A stretch of DNA of 64,000 bases from an uncultured Rickettsiales bacterium. Its GTDB lineage: Bacteria; Pseudomonadota; Alphaproteobacteria; Rickettsiales; SXRF01. How positions within the stretch are numbered: position 1 is the first letter of the stretch; each line of letters begins with the position of its first letter. The notes beneath the pieces are model-generated. The model had not been told where the DNA came from. It made no database searches and was given only the letters and a program-made list of their open reading frames with translations. The stretch lies in assembly GCA_964405685.1 (NCBI GenBank), contig CAYOOP010000001.1:270922-334921 (forward strand). The letters are read 5' to 3'. Both the position numbers and the translations under genes were made by a program. This document shows, piece by piece, positions 1,623 through 62,058 of the stretch.

Positions 1623-2069
1623 ATGCCCTCCATTGCCCTCTATCAGCCTGATATTGCTCAAAATGTTGGTGCCGTTATTCGCACCTGCGCCTGTTTTGGC
1701 GCTCCGCTACACATCATTGAACCGTGCGGGTTTATCTTCGATATGGCGCGGATTAAAAAGGCAGCGCTTGATTATGTGGAACATGCGGACGTTATCCGCC
1801 ACAGCAGTTTTGAGGTGTTTAGGAAAGATCGGCCGGCAGGGAAATTGGTGCTCTTTTCCACCAAGGCAACGCTTGATTATGATCAACACGCATTTGCACC
1901 CAATGATCTACTTCTCTTCGGGCGCGAGAGCGCGGGAGTGCCGGAAGATGTTGCGGCGGCAGCAGATGTATGTGTACGTATTCCGATGCGTGAAGGCATG
2001 CGTTCGCTTAATGTGGCGCAAACTGCGGCGATTGGAATTTCAGAAGCAATGAGGCAACACCGAGCATGA
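1623..2069 (+). CDS. trmL: tRNA (cytidine/uridine-2'-O)-methyltransferase TrmL (SpoU family)
   Basis: [34 protein letters not shown]... and C-terminal [15 protein letters not shown] are SpoU/TrmL motifs. I chose ATG 1623 inside the 1608 ORF. Confidence 0.85.
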
Positions 2070-3055
2070 TTAAAGACCAACAGGAAAAAGCAGCCGCGTG
2101 GTTTCGCGATTTACGCAACCGCATTTGCGCAGAATTTGAGAAGATCGAACAAGAATATAATATGTGGTCAGCAGACCACACCAGCCATGAGCCTACGAAG
2201 CAGCGCCCCATGGAATGTTCTCCTGAACATTCCATGGGGCTTTTCAAAAGAACACCCTGGAACCGCGAAGGCGGTGGGGGCGGTGAAATGTCGGTGATGA
2301 AAGGACGTGTGTTTGAAAAAGTAGGTGTGAATATTTCAACCGTACACGGTGAGTTTACACCTGAATTCCGCAAAGAAATGCCCAACGCACAAGAATATCC
2401 CTTCTTCTGGGCGAGCGGAATTTCCTTGGTTGCACATATGTGTTCCCCGAAGGTTCCGGCGGTGCATATGAATACAAGGATGATAGTGGTGTCGAAAGTA
2501 CCATTTAGTGATTCGAGGCCAGAAGGCCGAGTCAGCCCTGAGCTGCGCCTCATGGCGGATTCAGCAGAATCCGCCGGAGGCAATCAATATAAACTCTGGT
2601 TTGGTGGAGGTGCGGACCTCACGCCGATGAAGCCCGATGCCAAAGATACGGAGGATTTTCATGCGGCGTTTAAGGCCGCGTGCGATGCGCATGATGCAGG
2701 CTATTACCCCAAATTCAAACAATGGTGTGATGAGTATTTTTTCCTGAAACACCGTAATGAACCGCGCGGCGTGGGCGGGATTTTTTATGACTATGTGAAC
2801 ACCGGGAATTGGGATGCCGATTTTGCATTTACGCAATCCGTTGGCGAAGCGTTTTTGAATATCTACCCGCAATTAGTGCGGCGATATTACAAAGAAACAT
2901 GGACGAAGGAAGACCGAGAACACCAGCTGATGCGGCGCGGGAGGTATGTGGAGTTTAATTTGCTGTATGATCGCGGCACGCGGTTTGGGCTTATGACCGG
3001 TGGCAATACGGAGGCGATTTTGATGAGTCTTCCTCCAGAGGTGATGTGGCCATAA
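2066..3055 (+). CDS. hemF: Oxygen-dependent coproporphyrinogen III oxidase HemF, carrying two extra in-frame segments
   Basis: Motifs [66 protein letters not shown] and EAILMSLPP are present. ATGA overlap with trmL. At 329 aa it is longer than the roughly 280-300 aa I recall for HemF. Confidence 0.92.
2206..2239. repeat. Perfect palindrome (15-bp arms, 4-nt loop) inside the hemF coding sequence
   Basis: CCCCATGGAATGTTC-TCCT-GAACATTCCATGGGG read directly from the sequence. It encodes [12 protein letters not shown] in the hemF frame. Confidence 0.85.
2507..2587 (+). repeat. 81-bp hairpin-rich repeat element, in-frame copy 1 (inside hemF)
   Basis: An ungapped hand alignment to the reverse complement of 29421-29501 gives 57/81 identities. 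Hairpins are GGCC-AGAA-GGCC and GGCGGATTC-AGCA-GAATCCGCC. It encodes [27 protein letters not shown]. Confidence 0.7.
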
Positions 3056-5262: not shown

Positions 5263-6827
5263 GCTTGCTTTCGGTCGAACATTTAACGGTGGCGCTGGAG
5301 GATGAGCGCAAGCTCGTAAACGATGTTTCGTTTGCCATTGAGCGTGGGGAGATGCTGGCACTCGTGGGTGAATCCGGTTCGGGAAAATCGCTGACGGCGC
5401 TTTCGGTGATGCGGTTGTTGGCGCGACAGTTTCACGTTTCGGGGTCGATTGCGTTTGATGGGAAAACACTTTCTGAGCTTTCTGAACGTGAGATGCGCGG
5501 GATTCGTGGCGCGGATATTGGGATGATTTTCCAGGAGCCGATGACGGCGCTGAATCCGCTGCATACGATTGGGAAACAAATTGGCGAGGCGATTACGATT
5601 CATCATTCGCGTGAGCCGGAGTTGCGTGCACGGATTATGCAGTTGCTCGAGGATGTGGGGTTGCCGTATTTGAAGGAGCGACTGGGTGCTTATCCGCATG
5701 AGCTTTCGGGCGGAGAGCGACAGCGGGTGATGATTGCGATGGCGATTGCGAATAACCCGAAGCTCTTGATTGCTGATGAACCGACGACGGCGGTGGATGT
5801 GACCATTCAGGCGACGCTTTTGACACTGCTTAAAAAACTCCAGCGCGAGCGCAGCATGGCGATGTTGTTTATTACGCATGATCTCTCACTGGTTAAGCAC
5901 ATGGCGGAGCGGGTGGCGATTATGAAACAGGGCGAGTTGGTGGAGGTGGGCGAGGTGAAGACGGTGTGGGCGGCACCGCAACATCCCTATACGCAGGCGT
6001 TGCTTAAAAGTGAGCCTAAGGGTGAGGCGGTGACGCTGCCGGCCGATGCGGAAGTGTTGCTGGAGGCGAAGAGTGTGAATGTTGGGTTTCCGGTCAAAGC
6101 CGGGGTGTTGCGGCGGGTGACGGGGGTGAATGTTGCGGTGAAGGGTGTGTCGCTAACGCTTAAAAAAGGGGAGACGCTGGGGATCGTCGGCGAATCGGGC
6201 TCGGGGAAAACGACGTTGGCATTTGCACTGATTCGGATGCTGAAGGCGAGCGGCACGGTGGTGTTTGCGGGACGGGAGATTAGTGCGCTCACTCGCAAGC
6301 AATTGCATCCGCTCAGGAGGGAAATGCAACTCGTGTTTCAGGACCCGTTTGGGAGCTTGAATCCGCGGATGACGGTGGGGCAGATTATTGGCGAGGGACT
6401 GCGCGTGCATGAGCCGGATGCGCGCGACCACGAGGCGCGGATTGCGCAGATGCTCATCGATGTCGGGCTTTCGCCCGAAATGGCTGGCCGCTATCCGCAT
6501 GAATTTTCCGGCGGGCAGCGGCAGCGGATTTCGATCGCCCGCGCGCTGGTGCTAAGGCCCAAGCTGGTGGTGCTTGATGAGCCGACAAGCGCGCTTGATG
6601 TGACCGTGCAAAGTCAGATTTTGGAGTTGCTAAAGAGCTTTCAGCTGCGAGACGGCATCAGCTTCCTGCTGATTTCTCACGATTTACGCGTCATCCGCGC
6701 GATTGCACACCGGATTTTGGTGCTGAGGCGCGGGGAAATGGTGGAGATGGAGACAACGAAAACCCTATTTACAAAGCCAGGAAACACCTATACCAAATCC
6801 ATGATTCAAGCGGCCTGGCTCAGCTAG
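5259..6827 (+). CDS. yejF: ABC transporter ATP-binding protein with duplicated ATPase domains, YejF-like
   Basis: Two Walker A sites ([16 protein letters not shown]), two LSGG(E/Q)RQR signatures and two Walker B sites ([16 protein letters not shown]). Confidence 0.88.
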
Positions 6828-18269: not shown

Positions 18270-18355
18270 GGTGGAGTGGCCGAGTGGTCAATGGCAGCAG
18301 ACTGTAAATCTGCCCGCGTAAGCGTTCGCTGGTTCAAATCCAGCCTCCACCACCA
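18270..18355 (+). tRNA. tRNA-Tyr (anticodon GUA)
   Basis: Acceptor GGTGGAG/CTCCACC, anticodon loop CTGTAAA, long variable arm, T-arm GCTGG-TTCAAAT-CCAGC, and A-CCA encoded. Confidence 0.93.
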
Positions 18356-18490: not shown

Positions 18491-20491
18491 ATGAGTACCA
18501 TACCCTACGAAGCATTATTGTGTCGCCAAACTCCTGACATTAAAACACGCGCCGTAGCGTTGCGGCAAAAAGTAATTGATGCGGTACAAACAGGCAAAAT
18601 TCCCGTAGTAAGCAATGATAGAAGGATGGAGTTTGAACCCGAACACGACACCATCATCTATCTAGCGCTTCATGAGCCATCATCCTTAAAAGATCATTTA
18701 GCCACCACACGCTCCACTGCGGGTCAGCGTGAAGCATTGGATGCCTTAGAAACAGAATACATCGCCTTACACCAACGTCTCAATAATGCGTGGCCTGAAA
18801 AGAAAGCATTGCTGAAGTTAGAGAAAGAAAGCATCGATTCTACCATTGCGAAATGGTTATCAGCAGAAGAAATTGGAAATAGTGAAGTAGTCAACAAAGC
18901 AGCATTGCACCTTAAACAATACCGTTCTTATAATCCCCCTCATCTTACACACAAGAAGTCTTTTGTAGAAATGATTGCAGAGGGAGAGAGTGTTAAGGCC
19001 CCCTATGAACAAATTATAAAAGATATTCTTGAAGAGTGGTCATGTCCTGGAAAGAGATTTACCCTTAAAAACCTTGCAACACATCTACTCTCAGGCAGCA
19101 CTGAATTATCTCAAAGAGAAATAGAGTTATGGCTTCAAAGCCCGGGTAAGGATGGCAAAATTCGTGACAAAGTAACCGAACAAGTCTGCAACGCGACAGG
19201 TATGAGCAATGAAGATGAGGCTATGTTTTGGCGTGTGGCGCGCGGGAATCCTTCTATCCAGATTGATAGCAATCTATCGGCAACGGAGGTTTATGAACAG
19301 CTCACGAAGAAAATTGGTGCTCCCATCTTTCGTCTCCATCGGATGATAGGATCCTATGAAGATGTTATGCATAATGGAAGCCGTAGCGAAGACAGAATTT
19401 TCCATATGCCTGAAGCGCAAACATTATTGTCTTTTGCGCAACCATCAAAGCCCTGGTTATCACAAACCGCAGATCCTAAACAATGGCGTCAGAATTGGCT
19501 GATTGCGAGAAAACTATCCGGTGACTCACATCCCAAATTATTTGAGGATATGATTATGGATGCCGTTGCTTCGGACAATCCACGCAAGACATTGCTCAAA
19601 AGTATTCTAAATAGATCCGGTATCCATCCCGAGACCACGGAATCATTGCAAGGAAAATGGCAACATGTGAACCCGGACGGGCAATATGGGATAGACCATG
19701 TAAAAGCTCTGCGCGTGGGTCAATCCAGACCACTTACACGTCTAGAAGCGCAAGTGATTGTAGATGGTGCCCGCGAAGCATGCCCAACCTTAAATGCGGC
19801 CGCACAAGAGACGTGTATTGAAATGCTGATGGACTGCCCGCCGCGCGATATTCTTATTGATCGCTACATTCATCAGATAGATGCCAGCGGGCATCCTGCA
19901 AAAGTGCCTCTTAAATCGACGCTTAAAACGATTGCCGACAGTGAGCAAAAAACATTGACGTCAAGAGATCGCAATCAAAGATTTGTGCCAGAAGTGACAG
20001 AAGAATTTCATGATATTCTCACAAAAAATGATAGATTAACGCACGTAGGAGCTCCTTTATTTGCCAATAAATTGGGGCTTGAGGGGCCTCGTCGCAGGAA
20101 ATTTCTAGTGAGAGCAAAAGGCATTGCTGAGCAGGATCCGGAAACGGTTATCGACGATGTGCTTGGTAATAAAATCTCAGCGGCAGCCGGCTTAACCACA
20201 TTGATGGAGCAAACCGGGCATACCCAAACTAGCTTTGCTAAGGTTGCAGGTGAAGATCCACGCACTATTATGAATTGGTGCAAAAAGGGGTTTTCTATGA
20301 AAACGGGACTGGCACAGCATTTAGCAAATGAACTTCACCGCCCTGATCTTGCCGAAAGGATTCAGAAAACGTTTTGTCGTCGCACCAAAATAAATGATTC
20401 TAGCTTTGAACAAGCCCAAACAGAACGGGTGCATCATTTCCAAAATCTTGTTGCAAGTCAGATTGATGCACTGGGTCAAAACAAGCGCTAA
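18491..20491 (+). CDS. Hypothetical 666-aa protein (islet cargo)
   Basis: Long uninterrupted ORF in AT-rich DNA. Contains helix-turn-helix-like stretches (e.g. TQTSFAKVAGEDPRTIMNWCKKG). I cannot assign a family. Confidence 0.7.
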   Translation: MSTIPYEALLCRQTPDIKTRAVALRQKVIDAVQTGKIPVVSNDRRMEFEPEHDTIIYLALHEPSSLKDHLATTRSTAGQREALDALETEYIALHQRLNNAWPEKKALLKLEKESIDSTIAKWLSAEEIGNSEVVNKAALHLKQYRSYNPPHLTHKKSFVEMIAEGESVKAPYEQIIKDILEEWSCPGKRFTLKNLATHLLSGSTELSQREIELWLQSPGKDGKIRDKVTEQVCNATGMSNEDEAMFWRVARGNPSIQIDSNLSATEVYEQLTKKIGAPIFRLHRMIGSYEDVMHNGSRSEDRIFHMPEAQTLLSFAQPSKPWLSQTADPKQWRQNWLIARKLSGDSHPKLFEDMIMDAVASDNPRKTLLKSILNRSGIHPETTESLQGKWQHVNPDGQYGIDHVKALRVGQSRPLTRLEAQVIVDGAREACPTLNAAAQETCIEMLMDCPPRDILIDRYIHQIDASGHPAKVPLKSTLKTIADSEQKTLTSRDRNQRFVPEVTEEFHDILTKNDRLTHVGAPLFANKLGLEGPRRRKFLVRAKGIAEQDPETVIDDVLGNKISAAAGLTTLMEQTGHTQTSFAKVAGEDPRTIMNWCKKGFSMKTGLAQHLANELHRPDLAERIQKTFCRRTKINDSSFEQAQTERVHHFQNLVASQIDALGQNKR

Positions 20492-20510: not shown

Positions 20511-20542
20511 GTTCGCTGGTTCAAATCCAGCCTCCACCACCA
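20511..20542 (+). repeat. Duplicated tRNA-Tyr 3' fragment (att-like right repeat)
   Basis: Identical to 18324-18355 over 32 bp. The flanking bases differ on both sides. Confidence 0.9.
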
Positions 20543-28811: not shown

Positions 28812-30062
28812 TTAGAGTTCGACTTTTTGACCTTTTTTACGTTCGGAATCAGACTTAAGCTGCCCGCAGGCTGCAAAAATATCCCGCCCGCGGGGGGTGC
28901 GGATCGGGGAAATATAGCCTGCTTTGTAGATGATTTCGGCGAAGGCGTTGATGCGCGCATCGTCCGAGCATTCGTAGTCCGAGCCGGGCCATGGGTTGAA
29001 AGGAATGAGGTTTACTTTCGCATGGACGCCTTTGAGTAGACGGACCAATTCCTTAGCGTCCGCATCGGTGTCGTTTACGCCTTTAAGCATCACATATTCA
29101 AAGGTAATGCGGCGGGCGTTGGTGGCACCGGGGTATTTTTTGCAGGCTTCGAGCAATTCTTCTATCGGGTATTTTTTATTGAGCGGCACCAGCACGTTCC
29201 GCAAATCATCGCGCACGGCGTGGAGCGAAATGGCGAGGTTGACGCCGAGCTCGGTGCCGACGCGCTCAATCATCGGCACGACGCCGGAGGTCGAAAGGGT
29301 GATGCGGCGTTTGGACATGGCGATGCCGTCGGTATCCATGATAATGCGCAGTGCTTTGGCCACATTGTCGTAGTTAAACAGTGGCTCGCCCATGCCCATC
29401 AGGACGATGTTTGTGAACCTTGCGTTGCTCCCAGCGACTTCTTCTGAAGTCGCTATGGAGCGCGGCTCAGGGCTGGCGCGGTCTGCTGACCGCGCATAAC
29501 GCGGCCATTCTTTGAGGCCATCGCGCGCGACGAGGACTTGCGAAACAATCTCGCCGGGTTTGAGGTTGCGCACCAGCGGCATGGTGCCGGTGTGGCAGAA
29601 AGAACATGAGAGGGTGCAGCCGACTTGTGATGATATGCACAGCGCGCCTCGTTCCGTTTCCGGAATGAATACGGATTCGACTTTGTTGCCGTCGGGAAAT
29701 CCGAGCAACCATTTGCGCGTGCCATCGACCGAGGTGAGATCCCGCACGGACTCGGGCCGAGAAATCGTGAAATGTTCTTCCAGCAAGGGGCGCTTGGTTT
29801 TGGCGATGTTGGTCATCTCATCGAAGCTCGTCGCCCCGCGCGCATAGATCCAGTTCCACACCTGCTTGGCGCGGTATGGTTCCAAGCCAACGCTGGTCAG
29901 CGCCACCGTCAATTCTTCCAGCGTCAAACCAACCAATGAGGGCTTGGAACTGGGCGCGGCCAAGGGTACCTGCGGCGTTTTGGTAATCACACCATCATAG
30001 GTAGTAAGTGCCGCCGGATAATGGTGCACCTCGGCTTCGTTATGAATGGTTTCCGGTTCCAT
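28812..30062 (-). CDS. rlmN: Dual-specificity 23S rRNA/tRNA adenine-C2 methyltransferase RlmN (radical SAM), carrying an in-frame repeat insertion
   Basis: [11 protein letters not shown], radical-SAM CxxxCxxC (GCTLSCSFC), [13 protein letters not shown] and C-terminal ACGQL. I chose internal ATG 30062 because the longer ORF overlaps the upstream gene. Confidence 0.9.
29421..29501 (-). repeat. 81-bp hairpin-rich repeat element, in-frame copy 2 (inside rlmN)
   Basis: Its reverse complement aligns ungapped with 2507-2587 (57/81). Hairpins are GCGCGGTC-AGCA-GACCGCGC and GCGACTTC-AGAA-GAAGTCGC. It encodes [27 protein letters not shown]. Confidence 0.7.
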
Positions 30063-30492
30063 GGAATTGATACCCAAAAGCCGTGGTTCTAATGTATTCT
30101 GGCTCCCCCGGCAAGGTTTTAAGCTTGGCACGAAGGCGGTGAATGTGGGTTTCGAGCGTGTGGGTGTCGATATCGTCAGCATAACCCCACACGGTTTTAA
30201 GCAGGGTTTCGCGTGGCACTTCCGTGTCGGCATCCAGCAGGGTTTTCAGCAATAAGGCTTCTTTTTCAGTCAGTTCGATCGAAATTTCTCCGCACGTCAC
30301 GCTTTTTTTTGCGCTGTCAAAAAAAATGCCGGGGGCGAGGGGCACGCTCTCGCTCTTCAGCTTTTTAAGTAGATCCCGCAGAGGGATAGGCCCGTTTTCA
30401 AACAGGCTTTCTGGAACAGCGGCGTCTATCCCAAAGGGCTCTAATACTTCTACAATGGCGGTATTAAAACGTGGGTCGGTTGCGCTTGACAT
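30040..30492 (-). CDS. Winged-helix (OmpR/PhoB C-terminal type) DNA-binding protein lacking a receiver domain
   Basis: [13 protein letters not shown]....[33 protein letters not shown]...[11 protein letters not shown] is a Trans_reg_C-like domain. The N-terminal 60 aa is too short for a receiver. Confidence 0.7.
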
Positions 30493-48404: not shown

Positions 48405-50164
48405 TCTTTGCGCTATTTCTTCTTTGGCCATCGCTTGGCTTTGCCGAATATCGCCACGCGCTCACACTGTACGAAGCACCGAAATACCCGCCGGGGTTTT
48501 CGCACTTCGAATACGTCAATCCCAATGCACCGAAACAGGGAAATGTAAAACTCGCCGAAAGCGGCACGTTTGATTCGCTGAACACTTTTATTTTGAAAGG
48601 TGTGAAAGCGCCGGGCCTGCTTATGACGGTGGAAACGCTGATGGCACCCGCGCAGGATGAGCCGCAATCCTACTACGGGTGGGTGGCTGAAGCGGTGAAT
48701 ATCGGCGAGGGCGGCAAGACCATTGCCTTTCGCATGCGCCCCGAAGCGCGCTGGCAGGATGGCAAACCGATTATGCCTGAGGATATTATTTTCTCACTTA
48801 ATACGCTTAAGACCAAAGGCGATCCGACCTATGCGCTGCTATACAAAGACGTGGCAGATGTCAAACAGACCGGCGCGCATGAGGTGACGTTTTATTTAAG
48901 CAGTGCGAACCATGATCTCTATTTCTTCGTAGCCCAAATGCCGATTTTGCCGAAGCATTATTACGAAACGCATGATTTTGAAAAAACCACGCTGGAGCCG
49001 CCACTCGCGAGTGGCCCGTACCGTATTAAAAGTGTCGACCCGGGCCGCTCGATTGTTTACGAGCGCGTGAAGGATTACTGGGCGAAAGATTTGCCGGCAC
49101 TCATCGGCCAGTATAATTTCGATGAAATTCGCTACGATATGTACCGCGACGAAAACGTTGCGCTCGAAGCGTTTAAGGCCGGGGAATATGATTTCCGGCA
49201 GGAATTCGTGGCTCGCAATTGGGCACGTGCCTATGAATCGCCGGCGTTGAAAGAGGGAAAGTTTATCAAGCGCAAGGTGGATCACTCGATCCCGCAAGGC
49301 ATGCAGGCCTTTGTGTTTAATGTGCGCAAGCCTCAGTTTAAAGATCGCCGCGTGCGTGAGGCGGTGGCATTGGCGATGGATTTTGAGTGGCTCAACAAAA
49401 ACCTCTTTTTTGATGCCTACGCGCGCAACACCAGTTTTTTTAAAGCGACACCATTTGAATCCAAAGGACTTCCAGGCAAAGATGAGCTTGCGATTTTGGA
49501 GCCGTATAAACAAGATCTGCCCGAGCAGCTATTCACCGAACCGTTTACGCTTCCAGTCAATGATGGCTCCGGCAATACGCGCGCGAATTTGCTCAAAGCC
49601 CAGGCGTTGCTGAATGAAGCAGGATGGAAGGTGAAAGACGGCAAGCGTGTGGACCCGGAAACCGGCAAGCCGATGGCAATTGAGTTTATGCTCCGACAAC
49701 CGACCATGGAGCGTGTGCTGGGCGCTATGCGCAAAAATCTGGAGCGTTTGGGCATCACCTCCAGCGTTCGCCGAATTGACGACGCGCAGTACCAAAAACG
49801 CACCGACAATTTCGATTTCGACATCGTCTCCATCTGGGTGAACCAAGGTGTGTTTTACCCCGGCAACGAGCAAATGTTGCTGTGGCACTCCTCCCAAGCG
49901 GATATTAAGGGTAGCAATAACTTGAGCGGACTTAAAAACCCGGCCGTGGATGCGGCGCTACAAGCGCTGATAGATGCTAAAAATATCAATAACTTAACTG
50001 CAGCTGGGCGGACGCTTGACCGGGCGCTTTTATGGGAATGGGTGGTGATTCCCAACTGGCATTCCCAGAATTTCCGCATCGCCTATTGGGATAAATTCGG
50101 CCAACCGGTCGTTTCGCCAAAATATGCGATCGGATTTCAAACTTGGTGGCTGAAGCAGCCCTGA
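48386..50164 (+). CDS. Family 5 extracellular solute-binding protein, YejA-like
   Basis: 592 aa with a signal peptide. The LYEAPKYPPGFSHFEYVNPNAPKQG start is typical of YejA-type binding proteins. GTG start overlaps the SPFH gene end. Confidence 0.83.
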   Translation: MAKTRLVFALFLLWPSLGFAEYRHALTLYEAPKYPPGFSHFEYVNPNAPKQGNVKLAESGTFDSLNTFILKGVKAPGLLMTVETLMAPAQDEPQSYYGWVAEAVNIGEGGKTIAFRMRPEARWQDGKPIMPEDIIFSLNTLKTKGDPTYALLYKDVADVKQTGAHEVTFYLSSANHDLYFFVAQMPILPKHYYETHDFEKTTLEPPLASGPYRIKSVDPGRSIVYERVKDYWAKDLPALIGQYNFDEIRYDMYRDENVALEAFKAGEYDFRQEFVARNWARAYESPALKEGKFIKRKVDHSIPQGMQAFVFNVRKPQFKDRRVREAVALAMDFEWLNKNLFFDAYARNTSFFKATPFESKGLPGKDELAILEPYKQDLPEQLFTEPFTLPVNDGSGNTRANLLKAQALLNEAGWKVKDGKRVDPETGKPMAIEFMLRQPTMERVLGAMRKNLERLGITSSVRRIDDAQYQKRTDNFDFDIVSIWVNQGVFYPGNEQMLLWHSSQADIKGSNNLSGLKNPAVDAALQALIDAKNINNLTAAGRTLDRALLWEWVVIPNWHSQNFRIAYWDKFGQPVVSPKYAIGFQTWWLKQP

Positions 50165-50228
50165 ACTTGAATTACCCCCGTGATTTCCTGCTGGATTTGA
50201 ATAACATAGGGTAGTAGATTCCCGCGCT

Positions 50229-53908: not shown

Positions 53909-54585
53909 GGATAAAGCCCATAGCCCGCGCCGCGCACGGTTTGAATGAAAACGGGTTGCGATTGCTGTTCAATTTTTTTGCGTAGCCGCGTAATTTGTAC
54001 ATCCACGCTGCGTTCGCTCCCAAGCGATGCAAGCTCAGCCAGTTCCGCGCGACTTACCGCCTGACCCGCATGTTCGGCCAGAATTTTAAGCAACGTTGCC
54101 TCGGTGGAGGTGAGGTAAATGGGGGCACCTTCTAATTGCAGTTGGTGGTTTTTCAAATCGAATTGATACGAGCCAAAGGTCAGATGTTGTTTGGATGTGT
54201 TTAATGCCTGCGCGCGTTTTAATATGGCACGGATGCGAAGGATAAGTTCTTTGGGTTCGAACGGCTTGGTAAGGTAGTCATCGACCCCCGCCTCCAGGCC
54301 ATTGATACGATCCTCAGGCTCTGAGCGTGCGGACAGCATGAGAATGGGCAGCATGGGTTTGGTGAGGCTACCCGCAAATTCCAGGCCGGATTCACCGGGA
54401 ATCATCACATCAAGCACTATCAAGTCGAACGCAAACAGGGACATCAAATAGCGCGCGTCGTTCGTGCTTGCCGCGGTGCTCACGGCATAGTCATGATCGT
54501 GCAAAAAGCGTTTCAGCAAATCGCGCAGGCGATCATCGTCATCGACCACCAAAATGTGGGCTTCCATGGTTTCAGGCGTAAGCAT
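53905..54585 (-). CDS. OmpR-family response regulator
   Basis: Receiver (VVDDD...DLIVLDVMIPG...KPF) plus a winged-helix output domain (LTSTEATLLKILA...VDVQITRLRKKIE...IQTVRGAGY). Confidence 0.93.
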   Translation of the reverse strand: MLTPETMEAHILVVDDDDRLRDLLKRFLHDHDYAVSTAASTNDARYLMSLFAFDLIVLDVMIPGESGLEFAGSLTKPMLPILMLSARSEPEDRINGLEAGVDDYLTKPFEPKELILRIRAILKRAQALNTSKQHLTFGSYQFDLKNHQLQLEGAPIYLTSTEATLLKILAEHAGQAVSRAELAELASLGSERSVDVQITRLRKKIEQQSQPVFIQTVRGAGYGLYP

Positions 54586-54589
54586 CCCG

Positions 54590-55087
54590 CTATCCTAGCG
54601 ATTTCTTCTTCAGCAGCAAGGTAAAGGCGCCGGTGCCGCCTTGGGCTTGCTGGGCATAGGCAAACGCCAGAATATGCGGGCGAATTTCAGGCAGATTAAG
54701 CCAGCCTGGCAAGGCCTTTTTAAGCACGCCGCCCGCGCCATCGCGCCCCTTGCCGGTCACAATCAGCGCCACACGTAACCCCCGGGTTTGGGCGCACGCT
54801 AAGGTTTTGGTAAGCGCAGCGAAGGCTTCTTCCTGCGTCATGCCATGGAGATCAAGCGTTGCTTCAATCGGTAGCTCGCCGCGTTTTAGTTTCTTTGCTT
54901 TGCCCGCATCGACTCCTGAAAATTCCCCGCATTGAAGCAACGGTAGATGGGTGGAGGGTTGATAGGAAAGCCTCGGTTCGCCAATCGGAGCGGTGCGTTT
55001 GTTCAGGGGTCTTGGTTTAGTGACATGGCGGGGCTTGGCGCGGAGTTTGCGCACATTTTTTGTTTCTTTTTCCCAATCGTCACTCAT
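54590..55087 (-). CDS. Smr-domain protein
   Basis: LDLHGMTQEEA......G.R.ALIVTGKG....GVLK..LP.WL is the Smr/MutS2 C-terminal domain. I chose the internal start at 55087. Confidence 0.8.
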   Translation of the reverse strand: MSDDWEKETKNVRKLRAKPRHVTKPRPLNKRTAPIGEPRLSYQPSTHLPLLQCGEFSGVDAGKAKKLKRGELPIEATLDLHGMTQEEAFAALTKTLACAQTRGLRVALIVTGKGRDGAGGVLKKALPGWLNLPEIRPHILAFAYAQQAQGGTGAFTLLLKKKSLG

Positions 55088-61678: not shown

Positions 61679-61698
61679 GACAATTCCAATGACACCCC

Positions 61699-61727
61699 TT
61701 GCAAAACTGCGGTAATGCTAGTATATT
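61699..61727 (+). promoter_or_regulatory. Candidate promoter of the tmRNA gene
   Basis: TTGCAA (61699-61704), a 17-nt spacer, then TATATT (61722-61727), upstream of the tRNA-like acceptor piece. Confidence 0.4.
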
Positions 61728-61732
61728 AGTAG

Positions 61733-62058
61733 CTGTCACGCAAGTGGCTATGGCAATAAACGCTGCTTAGAATAGACGATTTGGACCCGGGGGCAGAGCC
61801 CGGCATCTCCACCTGATCCGGCAAAGCCGGATCAGGTGGGGATGAATCAGTTTCGACAGACGTAATAAAAATTCAGTTTTTGCCAAGCATGACACCGCTT
61901 TAAAGGGTCATTTTATAAATGCTAACGACAACGTTGCATTTGTTGCTGCTAACGACAACAACGTCGCTGCAGTTGCTGTAGCTGCCTAAGTGGCACTTCA
62001 GTAGCTCTTAGCTCAACGCGGTTTGGGGTGTACCGGGCAACAGAAACACCCCACTTTT
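61733..62058 (+). ncRNA. ssrA: Two-piece (circularly permuted) tmRNA gene: acceptor piece, excised hairpin, coding piece
   Basis: The upstream piece ends GGAC-CCGGG-GGCAGAG-CCCGG-CATCTCC-A-CC (T-arm plus 3' acceptor strand, to 61813). A hairpin spacer ACCTGATCCGGC-AAA-GCCGGATCAGGT follows. The downstream piece starts GGGGATG (61838) and pairs with CATCTCC, giving a G3:U70 wobble. Then come the UUCGAC motif and a tag ORF GCT AAC GAC AAC ... GCT GCC TAA. The 5' boundary is approximate. Confidence 0.8.

Follow-up and report, generated by a model that had tools for sequence, protein, structure and literature searches.

The question raised by the 64,000-nucleotide stretch of DNA analysed here (the window, from an uncultured Rickettsiales bacterium) is why its rlmN gene, on the minus strand at 28812-30062, carries an extra segment of 81 nucleotides in its reading frame, and what kind of sequence this segment is. 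The gene encodes a dual-specificity radical-SAM RNA methyltransferase of 416 residues that is identical to the database protein P0001; the start most likely is at 30062 rather than at the first ATG at 30233. Its identity as RlmN follows from the NCBIfam equivalog model TIGR00048 (395.7 bits; the cutoff is 290), the match to which is broken into two stretches by the insert, and from a phmmer search of the PDB (3rf9, 5.9e-88). The CxxxCxxC cluster motif and both catalytic cysteines are kept: C142, C149, C153, C156, and C399 are invariant in our alignment A1, and the cysteines align to the motifs of E. coli RlmN, whose mechanistic cysteines are C118 and C355. Judged by these residues the host gene looks intact. 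The sequence-only reading of this locus had called the enzyme essential, which is overstated because RlmN is dispensable in E. coli.

The extra residues map between residues 153 and 163 of E. coli RlmN (3rf9), in a connector that the sequence-only reading had described as short in other RlmNs. The alignment bears this out: among the 119 closest homologues, 99 have a connector of 8-10 residues, whereas ca. 17% of the close homologues have a longer one, in one way or another. Relative to the canonical connector the net gain is 21-22 residues, not 27. The segment might have turned out to be a conserved part of RlmN, with no nucleotide-level repeat at other loci; instead, the nearest ortholog (P0002; ca. 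90% amino acid and 79% nucleotide identity) lacks it and reads ...EWNVKGEDRIFTNIV..., and repeats of it occur elsewhere. In a nearest-neighbour census the element-bearing RlmNs usually are closer to an empty-site neighbour than to any filled one (0.93 versus 0.75 for P0001). The net length of the insert varies from +18 to +29 residues between sites, so that the mobile unit and its ends can be placed only approximately. In other lineages, a different insert family ("...GGSVPP") fills the same rlmN and hemF loops. Whether the 27 residues form an excursion from the fold was addressed with an AlphaFold (AF2) model, in which they bulge out with low confidence: pLDDT stays below 50 for residues 190-212, and the insert is flanked by helix 169-183 and strand 216-221. 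The remainder of the predicted fold is RlmN-like (Foldseek to 3rfa_B, E = 2.5e-35, target-normalised TM 0.84). The insert is thus predicted to be a disordered loop in the helix-to-strand connector of RlmN.

At the nucleotide level, the segment (29421-29501, minus strand) is an in-frame copy of a double-hairpin repeat, recognized by our covariance model R1 (85.9 bits, E = 8e-21) and by nhmmer (E = 1e-22), and it holds no stop codon in the frame of rlmN. Its boundaries are approximate: the covariance-model footprint covers 29412-29505, the part kept across copies ca. 29427-29497, and conservation begins at the base of hairpin 1 and extends as far as ...GGGAGCAA, over some 71-75 nt. The two perfect 8-bp hairpins noticed earlier are both present (all features that follow are on the minus strand). 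Hairpin 1 (29476-29495) reads GCGCGGTC-AGCA-GACCGCGC in gene sense and GCGCGGTC-TGCT-GACCGCGC on the plus strand. The core CAGCCCTGAGC (29465-29475), which is made up of invariant columns of alignment A2, encodes S-P-E in the reading frame that rlmN and hemF share; its +1 frame holds a TGA. Hairpin 2 (29427-29461) has a whole stem of ca. 15 bp with one bulge, composed of an outer stem GCTCC/GGAGC and an inner perfect stem, GCGACTTC-AGAA-GAAGTCGC (29434-29453), which on the plus strand is GCGACTTC-TTCT-GAAGTCGC. The 81 nt fold with -43.8 kcal/mol as RNA (z = -5.8) and with -27.1 kcal/mol as DNA (z = -5.9); none of 200 shuffles was as stable.

Covariance model R1 identifies three in-frame copies in the window (E = 3e-22, 8e-21, and 1.8e-08), one in rlmN and two in hemF; the earlier count had been two. 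The hemF gene (2066-3055, plus strand; NCBIfam NF003727, 377 bits, in two stretches) encodes oxygen-dependent coproporphyrinogen oxidase. Its copy at site 2 (2503-2596, plus strand; R1 91.4 bits, E = 3e-22) is well preserved and lies in-frame immediately before the ..LWFGGG motif; hemF positions 2508-2583 are 73.7% identical to the rlmN copy over 76 nt and share its reading frame, which upholds the claim that the rlmN element recurs elsewhere. Site 2 also is filled in loci L009 and L038 and in many HemF homologues. The copy at site 1 (2152-2255, plus strand; R1 38.4 bits, E = 1.8e-08; nhmmer E = 3e-05) is in-frame, longer, and degenerate, its core being mutated to CAGCCATGAGC; the copy at this site is forward in the window but reverse in L009/P0130. 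An exact and near-exact search of the window gave no further match to the rlmN segment within 3 mismatches; this search and a generic repeat finder both missed the ca. 74%-identical hemF copies, which were found by low-stringency blastn and nhmmer. Weak model matches at 20319-20398, 50085-50178, 30356-30418, and 54585-54660 were inspected and dismissed. With Rfam 15, only tmRNA and tRNAs were detected in the window, and no family at 29412-29505 or 2152-2596. The tmRNA is of the alpha type, which marks the source as an alphaproteobacterium, one related to the MAGs labelled Rickettsiales.

Beyond the window, copies of the family recur both inside single genomes and throughout a clade of uncultured alphaproteobacteria that carry the label Rickettsiales. 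An exact-pattern scan of the GTDB species genomes, with the core CAGCCCTGAGC as part of the pattern, returned 76 loci, nearly all from Rickettsiales or Alphaproteobacteria MAGs, against ca. 0.5 chance matches estimated from the information content of the pattern and the size of the collection; the window's own genome was not among the genomes returned. In 605 kb of MAG loci named "Rickettsiales/Alphaproteobacteria bacterium", R1 finds 125 copies (48 intergenic, 14 overlapping gene ends, 50 intragenic on the same strand, and 13 on the opposite strand), a density and context fractions that are biased because the loci were selected by the element's own pattern, and in which an orthologous copy is counted once for each MAG that holds it. 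The model gives no match in 477 kb of control loci that contain rlmN, taken from a metagenome scan for relatives of this rlmN. About half of the copies are intergenic, and the other half reside in genuine housekeeping genes, the reading frame of which they leave unbroken: the 50 same-strand intragenic copies comprise 31 in the S-P-E frame, 8 in another open frame, and 11 with a variant core, and the TGA frame of the core is used by none of them. The twenty host ORFs that could be named by Pfam include RecJ, HisF/A, HemF, class-I aaRS, UbiD, CarB, GlyQ, RibF, TlyA, and acyl-CoA dehydrogenase. The short form (ca. 71-81 nt) consists of an 8-bp hairpin, the core CAGCCCTGAGC, and a second hairpin of 14-16 bp; long forms (ca. 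103-107 nt) carry an additional middle hairpin. In intergenic DNA, head-to-head (-)(+) inverted doublets, a few nt apart, are present in L057, L069, L010, L049, L032, L044, L031, L051, and L065. Single MAGs hold near-identical subfamilies, such as the copies in CAYMGS01, at least nine of which have ...CATCTGCCGAGCAGGAGGCGAGGCGGGGAGACAAT in common, and these subfamilies point to recent proliferation. A search of a plasmid collection gave no match to the element, and we found no earlier description in the available literature on the core motif and on palindromic repeats in Rickettsiales MAGs.

Compensatory changes show that the stems of these copies are maintained, so that structure, and not sequence, is conserved. 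In alignment A2, 76% of the cells are paired versus 62% in shuffles (none of 500 reaches 76%), with a covariation score of 0.40 versus 0.18; in alignment A3, 83% are paired versus 61% in shuffles and 26-51% in slid controls, and both-side changes occur at all 22 of 22 stem pairs. Helix 1 is 80% paired, with both-side changes at 8 of its 8 pairs (A3); the inner GGYC/GRCC pairs of hairpin 1 are kept family-wide, and its outer pairs covary or become tandem G.A mismatches, which also are conserved, as is a T.G wobble pair found in 82 of ca. 112 copies. The stem letters of hairpin 2 differ from copy to copy with complementarity retained, and its outer helix, 94-96% paired, covaries (GCTCC/GGAGC, GCCTC/GAGGC, GCCCC/GGGGC, GTCTC/GAGAC, and others). 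Even where the hosts are only ca. 70% identical, the copies at orthologous sites keep the 11-nt core unchanged; this could reflect selection on each copy for some function, or gene conversion that homogenizes the copies.

The reading that we prefer, with a probability of roughly 80%, is that the rlmN segment belongs to a family of dispersed, non-autonomous palindromic repeats that act like Rickettsia palindromic elements (RPEs) or like selfish DNA of the MITE/REP type. The copy would have inserted into the DNA for the connector that leads from the first barrel helix to the next strand of RlmN, probably at the barrel end away from the Fe-S/SAM site, a placement that follows from how TIM-barrel-type radical-SAM folds are generally built. 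Frame 0 of the element is open, and the copy would therefore be translated, as frame statistics suggest, into a disordered loop of 22-27 residues, with much Ser, Pro, Glu, Arg, and Ala, that is tolerated by the enzyme and may lack a function. In rlmN as in hemF, many independent insertions would have refilled the same loops, under selection for permissive loops and possibly with a target preference. The sequence-only reading regarded the tolerance of a single RlmN as notable in itself; more notable is that this loop and two HemF loops are repeatedly filled across the whole clade, apparently by independent hits, as the different orientations, frames, and element families suggest.

The occupancy of a single connector in all element-bearing RlmNs could also stem from one ancient rlmN insertion in the ancestor of the clade, followed by vertical descent and by later precise losses, including one in the nearest ortholog. 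P0078/P0084 and P0007/P0034 are mutual nearest filled relatives, the RlmNs of the "P..LL" subclade have the HEQEAS subtype of hairpin 2 in common, and palindromes are prone to slippage deletion, all of which would fit such a history. We consider it unlikely, however: at least six filled sequences have a closer empty neighbour, which would demand many precise in-frame losses restoring 8-10 residues; the host genes are 21% apart in nucleotides, yet the copy in the window, with 86 bits and perfect stems, is close to the consensus; and the hemF loops of the clade have been filled in either orientation, in two frames, and by different families, which one event cannot have produced. That the extra residues are a native, lineage-specific elaboration of RlmN, with a coincidental likeness to hemF, is hardly conceivable. 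Loop length often differs among radical-SAM enzymes, as the longer connectors of ca. 17% of the close RlmNs illustrate, but the 74% nucleotide identity to the hemF copy with its compensatory stem changes, and the 125 model matches in related genomes against zero in the controls, would then be left unexplained; we regard this explanation as refuted by the closest ortholog, which is devoid of the segment, and by the repeat copies in hemF and in the MAGs.

Two further explanations concern the fate of the segment rather than its origin. Selection might keep it as a co-opted part of rlmN, either for its mRNA hairpins (ca. -44 kcal/mol), which would tune rlmN translation, co-translational folding, or mRNA stability, or for its peptide as a useful flexible or interaction loop. 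The core CAGCCCTGAGC and the stems are kept even in old orthologous copies, the T.G wobble and the G.A mismatches of hairpin 1 are conserved, and the ratio of S-P-E frame to other open frame to reverse orientation is 31:8:13, counts that are inflated by orthologous copies. Yet the element also occurs in unrelated enzymes and in intergenic DNA, so that any function would be generic; close orthologs do without the segment; the insert is predicted to be disordered; its position is without an Rfam family; and there is no strand asymmetry of folding, both strands folding equally well (top -34.4 versus bottom -34.1 kcal/mol, p = 0.52). Together these points make co-option quite improbable. A compact, GC-rich double hairpin within a coding region moreover resembles the mitochondrial GC clusters and double-hairpin elements, and the element might be untranslated, being cut from the RNA or bypassed by the ribosome in the manner of the GC-rich hairpin "byp" elements of yeast mitochondria. 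We hold this to be very remote, since the host frame is open in every intragenic copy, the TGA frame is never used, and the net length differences amount to whole codons, constraints that would not bind a removed or bypassed segment. The insert has no intron or intein signatures, and Rfam gave no match there.

To return to the rlmN segment as a copy of a dispersed repeat, its mobility is deduced from the distribution of copies alone because no transposase, terminal inverted repeat, or target duplication was found. Sequence logos of the flanks of 55 copies display neither terminal inverted repeats nor target-site duplications nor direct repeats; the flank information is ca. 0 beyond position -4 and beyond GGGGCAA, with a weak A.GAAG at -9 to -4. 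Among 3516 ORFs (window plus L001-L081, ca. 0.67 Mb), phmmer with RAYT, IS200, and IS608 TnpA queries detected no RAYT gene, which is a weak test. An IS200-like tnpA in L072 was considered as mobilizer and rejected, its ends being no closer to the element than shuffled sequence. In the metagenome scan the best relative of this rlmN was only 70% identical, and hence neither a filled/empty polymorphism inside one population nor precise ends were recovered. A trans-acting enzyme that recognizes the hairpins and the conserved core on single-stranded DNA is our guess for the mobilizer; we give it somewhat less than an even chance, given that the copies show neither terminal inverted repeats nor target duplications.

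Several known systems invite comparison. The RPEs (RPE-1 to RPE-10; Ogata et al. 2000 Science, 2002 Genome Res; via PMC10969869, PMC1779305, PMC1458961) are 100-150 bp long (PMC1779305), and in R. bellii 53 of 526 are intragenic (PMC10969869, PMC1779305, PMC1458961). RPEs and our family have in common that they are dispersed palindromes found in intergenic DNA and in-frame in unrelated housekeeping genes; that they contribute a stretch of peptide which the host fold accommodates (in our family, presumably); that they show lineage-specific proliferation of subfamilies, some inserts being common to orthologs; and that they have no known associated transposase and alphaproteobacterial hosts classified with the Rickettsiales. 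Our family differs in its base composition (64% GC in a genome of ca. 52% GC, RPEs being AT-rich), in its shorter length (71-81 nt, long form ca. 105 nt), and in its intragenic fraction (ca. 50%, in a biased sample, versus the 53 of 526 in R. bellii). It further stands apart from RPEs by its defined two-hairpin architecture with an invariant 11-nt core, and by the refilling of the same protein loops, in both orientations and by several families. It also appears to be unrelated in sequence to the described RPEs: six insert peptides, compared at the peptide level with NCBIfam, matched no family at E <= 10, and the NCBI annotation models presumably include RPE-domain models.

Like REP/BIME/REPIN sequences (RAYT, IS200/IS605-like HUH), the family consists of short imperfect palindromes with compensatory change, has a conserved unpaired motif that adjoins the stem, frequently forms head-to-head inverted doublets in intergenic DNA, and has neither inverted terminal repeats nor target duplications. 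REPs are extragenic by definition and form a single hairpin of 20-40 nt, whereas half of the copies here lie within genes, in-frame. Bacterial MITEs have been found intragenically (ERIC, Correia, Nezha, and others; PMC10969869), and classical MITEs resemble our family in being small and non-autonomous, with strong secondary structure and occasional in-frame fusions with host ORFs (PMC10969869). Unlike classical MITEs, the family has neither detectable terminal inverted repeats or target-site duplications nor a known parent IS, and in-frame occupation is the rule here and occasional there. The double-hairpin elements and GC clusters of fungal mitochondria, organelles that descend from alphaproteobacteria, also are mobile, are composed of two GC-rich hairpins, and reside within coding and rRNA genes; their sequence and hosts differ, some of them are bypassed or disrupt genes, and we know of no evidence for a common descent with our family.

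Up to now, in-frame palindromic repeats have been regarded as something peculiar to the genus Rickettsia. We tentatively propose, with the odds rather against it, that the GC-rich double-hairpin family and at least one or two sister families colonized a clade of uncultured, probably free-living Rickettsiales-like bacteria, re-entering the same few surface loops (in RlmN, HemF, RecJ, aaRS, and others) in either orientation, and that protein-coding palindromes thus are not unique to Rickettsia. If this is true, there would be a target preference at the DNA level, or existing copies would attract new ones or be replaced by them. On the practical side, the inserts split HMM matches in two (RlmN and HemF here) and inflate the apparent divergence of proteins, and the repeats may break MAG assemblies. 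In well-studied enzymes, the family offers dozens of orthologous sites, some filled and some empty, a natural experiment that shows which loops tolerate insertions of ca. 25 residues and that is of use for protein engineering and annotation. If the proposal above is true, the elements would act as a systematic source of diversity in the loops of housekeeping proteins, and the presence of a second, unrelated family in environmental relatives of higher GC content would suggest a general survival route for selfish DNA in gene-dense genomes: to be translatable and to land in permissive loops.

The minus-strand ORF at 28812-30233 translates as the sequence-only reading had it and encodes RlmN: its TIGR00048 score is 395.7 bits (cutoff 290), with the match broken into two stretches. 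The rlmN start likely lies at 30062; the resulting protein of 416 aa matches P0001 in the database exactly. Overlapping this start by ca. 23 nt is a small gene of the Trans_reg_C type (OmpR-type winged helix) at 30040-30492 (minus strand), and the pair it forms with rlmN (28812-30062, minus strand), in which it is upstream, is conserved in loci L001-L004 and L081. The extra residues, encoded by the 81-nt element at 29421-29501 (minus strand), fall between residues 153 and 163 of E. coli RlmN (3rf9). The connector from the conserved Trp to (T/S)NIVxMGMGEP measures 8-10 aa in 99 of the 119 closest homologues, and in the nearest RlmN ortholog, P0002 (ca. 90% protein and 79% DNA identity), it reads EWNVKGEDRIFTNIV, with a clean gap facing the element; the segment is thus an insert and not native to RlmN. 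The insertion had been put at 27 aa: its presence is borne out, its exact size is not, as the net gain is 21-22 aa, and the 81-nt boundaries are therefore approximate. The enzyme had also been called essential, which overstates the matter, since rlmN mutants of E. coli are viable.

In an AF2 model of the window RlmN (mean pLDDT 73) the insert forms a low-confidence stretch (pLDDT below 50 for residues 190-212), which sits between helix 169-183 and strand 216-221. Outside it the fold is RlmN-like (target-normalised TM-score 0.84 to E. coli RlmN), and the enzyme retains its conserved catalytic cysteines. In TIM-barrel-type radical-SAM folds the helix-to-strand connector is found at the barrel end distal to the cluster, and by analogy the insert would be situated there.

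Both perfect 8-bp hairpins noticed earlier are present (29476-29495 and 29434-29453), the latter lying within a ca. 15-bp stem (29427-29461) that contains one bulge. Folded as RNA, the 81 nt reach -43.8 kcal/mol (z = -5.8 versus shuffles), and as DNA z = -5.9; the GC content of the element is 64% versus 52% for the window. The element consists of hairpin 1 (GGYC-AGNA-GRCC on the inside, the pairs further out either covarying or forming tandem G.A); an invariant core, CAGCCCTGAGC; 2-4 nt, replaced by an extra hairpin in long forms of ca. 105 nt; and a second, long hairpin (hairpin 2), in which both the outer stem (GCNNC...GNNGC) and the inner one vary among copies with their complementarity kept. 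Among 29 copies picked by hand, 76% of cells were paired versus 62% in shuffles (0 of 500 equalled this), and the covariation score was 0.40 versus 0.18; slid controls gave 27-43%. In A3, the alignment of 125 copies found with the covariance model R1, all 22 pairs changed on both sides, and paired cells reached 83% versus 61% in shuffles, a figure biased towards structure because A3 was fitted to R1. Three A3 pairs (147-227, 13-68 and 15-67) depart from standard pairing: the inner stem of hairpin 2 has at its base a T.G wobble kept in 82 of ca. 112 copies, and tandem G.A mismatches take the place of two hairpin 1 pairs in ca. 57% of copies; despite these features both strands fold equally well overall.

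Two further window copies, both on the plus strand within hemF (2066-3055), were identified by low-stringency blastn and nhmmer: a good copy at ~2503-2596 (73.7% identity over 76 nt, reading frame as in rlmN) and a degenerate one at ~2152-2255, also recognized by R1, which matches the window exactly three times (E = 3e-22, 8e-21, and 1.8e-08). The rlmN orthologs of L002, L003, and L004 carry the element at the identical site. A pattern built from these copies, GGYCAGNAGRCCNNNNCARCCCTGAGC, retrieved 76 loci from the GTDB species genomes versus ~0.5 chance matches, as estimated from pattern information content and collection size. Nearly all belong to MAGs named "Rickettsiales bacterium" or "Alphaproteobacteria bacterium". 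In the related loci (605 kb) R1 found 125 copies; the control, 477 kb surrounding more distant rlmN genes, yielded none. In some single MAGs the copies are numerous and near-identical, a sign of recent proliferation. Pattern matches in MAGs of unrelated taxa, namely L014 (Roseimaritima), L060 (Filomicrobium; R1 66 bits, within a TPS-domain ORF), and L070 (Azospirillum; 42 bits), may reflect binning contamination or a broader spread. The window itself is assigned to Alphaproteobacteria from its two-piece (permuted) alphaproteobacterial tmRNA (61695-62055; RF01849, 206 bits). Elsewhere in it, the last 32 nt of tRNA-Tyr (18324-18355; gene 18270-18355) recur exactly at 20511-20542, flanking a 666-aa ORF (18491-20491) with no assigned function; the arrangement resembles what an element inserted at the 3' end of the tRNA would leave behind, and no integrase is visible.

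With genes called by a simple longest-ORF-first rule, 48 of the 125 copies are intergenic and 14 overlap a gene end. The intragenic copies lie on the same strand in the S-P-E frame (31), in the other open frame (8), or with a variant core (11), or on the opposite strand (13); the TGA frame is never used on the same strand. The 20 host ORFs checked by Pfam are ordinary housekeeping genes: RecJ (2), HisF/A, HemF (4), RlmN, UbiD, RibF, CarB, GlyQ, TlyA, class-I aaRS with 2-3 copies each, an aminotransferase, an acyl-CoA dehydrogenase, an M20 peptidase, an agmatine deiminase, and a TPS protein. GAGCCWTCAGC is the core of a variant family. Between genes, elements are often paired head to head in inverted orientation; the pairs at L057:148-353, L069:185-388, L010:337-571, L049:1686-1887, L032:47-253, and L044:1188-1408, spaced by a few to ~40 nt, usually combine a canonical copy with a ~105-nt long-form variant bearing this core. 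Flank logos revealed neither terminal inverted repeats nor target duplication, their sole signal being a weak A.GAAG upstream of the element.

Could one ancient insertion account for the occupied loops? A recognisable copy is present in about 10 of 119 RlmN homologues, and for most of these the nearest empty-site neighbour is closer than any filled one (identities of 0.93 versus 0.75 for P0001 and 0.89 versus 0.85 for the homologue P0031). Window hemF carries its two in-frame copies in different loops, canonically 10 aa (site 1) and 6 aa (site 2) long. These are hypervariable across the clade, and over half of the 120 closest homologues have expansions, in a search biased to sequences sharing words with the query. 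The expansions include copies in forward orientation; in-frame copies in reverse, such as that of P0130 (locus L009; 84.5 bits, on the strand opposite to hemF); copies in the other open frame (GGQQTDPALS); and unrelated insert families. One of these families (...GGSVPP; peptide ...AEERSDDLAGGRARSASGGSVPP...), a second in-frame insert type, fills HemF site 2 in P0162 and P0181 and likewise the RlmN connector of three proteins (P0008, P0017, and P0094); its DNA in the P0008 rlmN (L081:10502-10609) is also hairpin-rich, and no additional copy turned up in the loci examined. A single ancient event cannot account for such a distribution. Recurring HemF peptides, EELKNWRNEEKKDSSIPQFPNS... and ...GSTGSQ..DPAQSLRASQD... 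(P0155 and P0163 at sites 1 and 2; P0123, P0139, and P0241 at site 1), suggest additional, putatively translatable repeat families in these genomes.

Among known systems, Rickettsia palindromic elements (RPEs) are 100-150 bp long and occur both between genes and in frame, with 526 copies in R. bellii, 53 of them in genes (PMC1779305, PMC1458961, PMC10969869). Our element matches them in being both intergenic and in-frame, but is shorter, GC-rich, and without sequence relationship to them. The insert peptides had no NCBIfam match at E <= 10, the element had none in the plasmid collection, Rfam places no family at its position, and no description of the family was found in the searchable literature. 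Its inverted doublets and its lack of terminal repeats and target duplications are reminiscent of REP/REPIN elements, and the head-to-head pairs resemble REPIN/BIME doublets. A phmmer search of the ORFs from the window and L001-L081, in itself a weak test, gave no RAYT gene. An IS200/IS605-type TnpA at a contig end in L072 (~6010-6460, minus strand; phmmer E = 2e-23) is flanked by the hairpins CCATGGGGC-TT-GCCCCATGG and CCACGGGCC-TT-GGCCCGTGG; these ends resemble the element no better than shuffled sequence does. The original finding is real and its interpretation essentially right: what rlmN carries is a copy of a selfish double-hairpin repeat, translatable and RPE-like in action, that belongs to no described RPE family. 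The RlmN and HemF loops are hot spots, via selection of permissive sites, targeting, or both.
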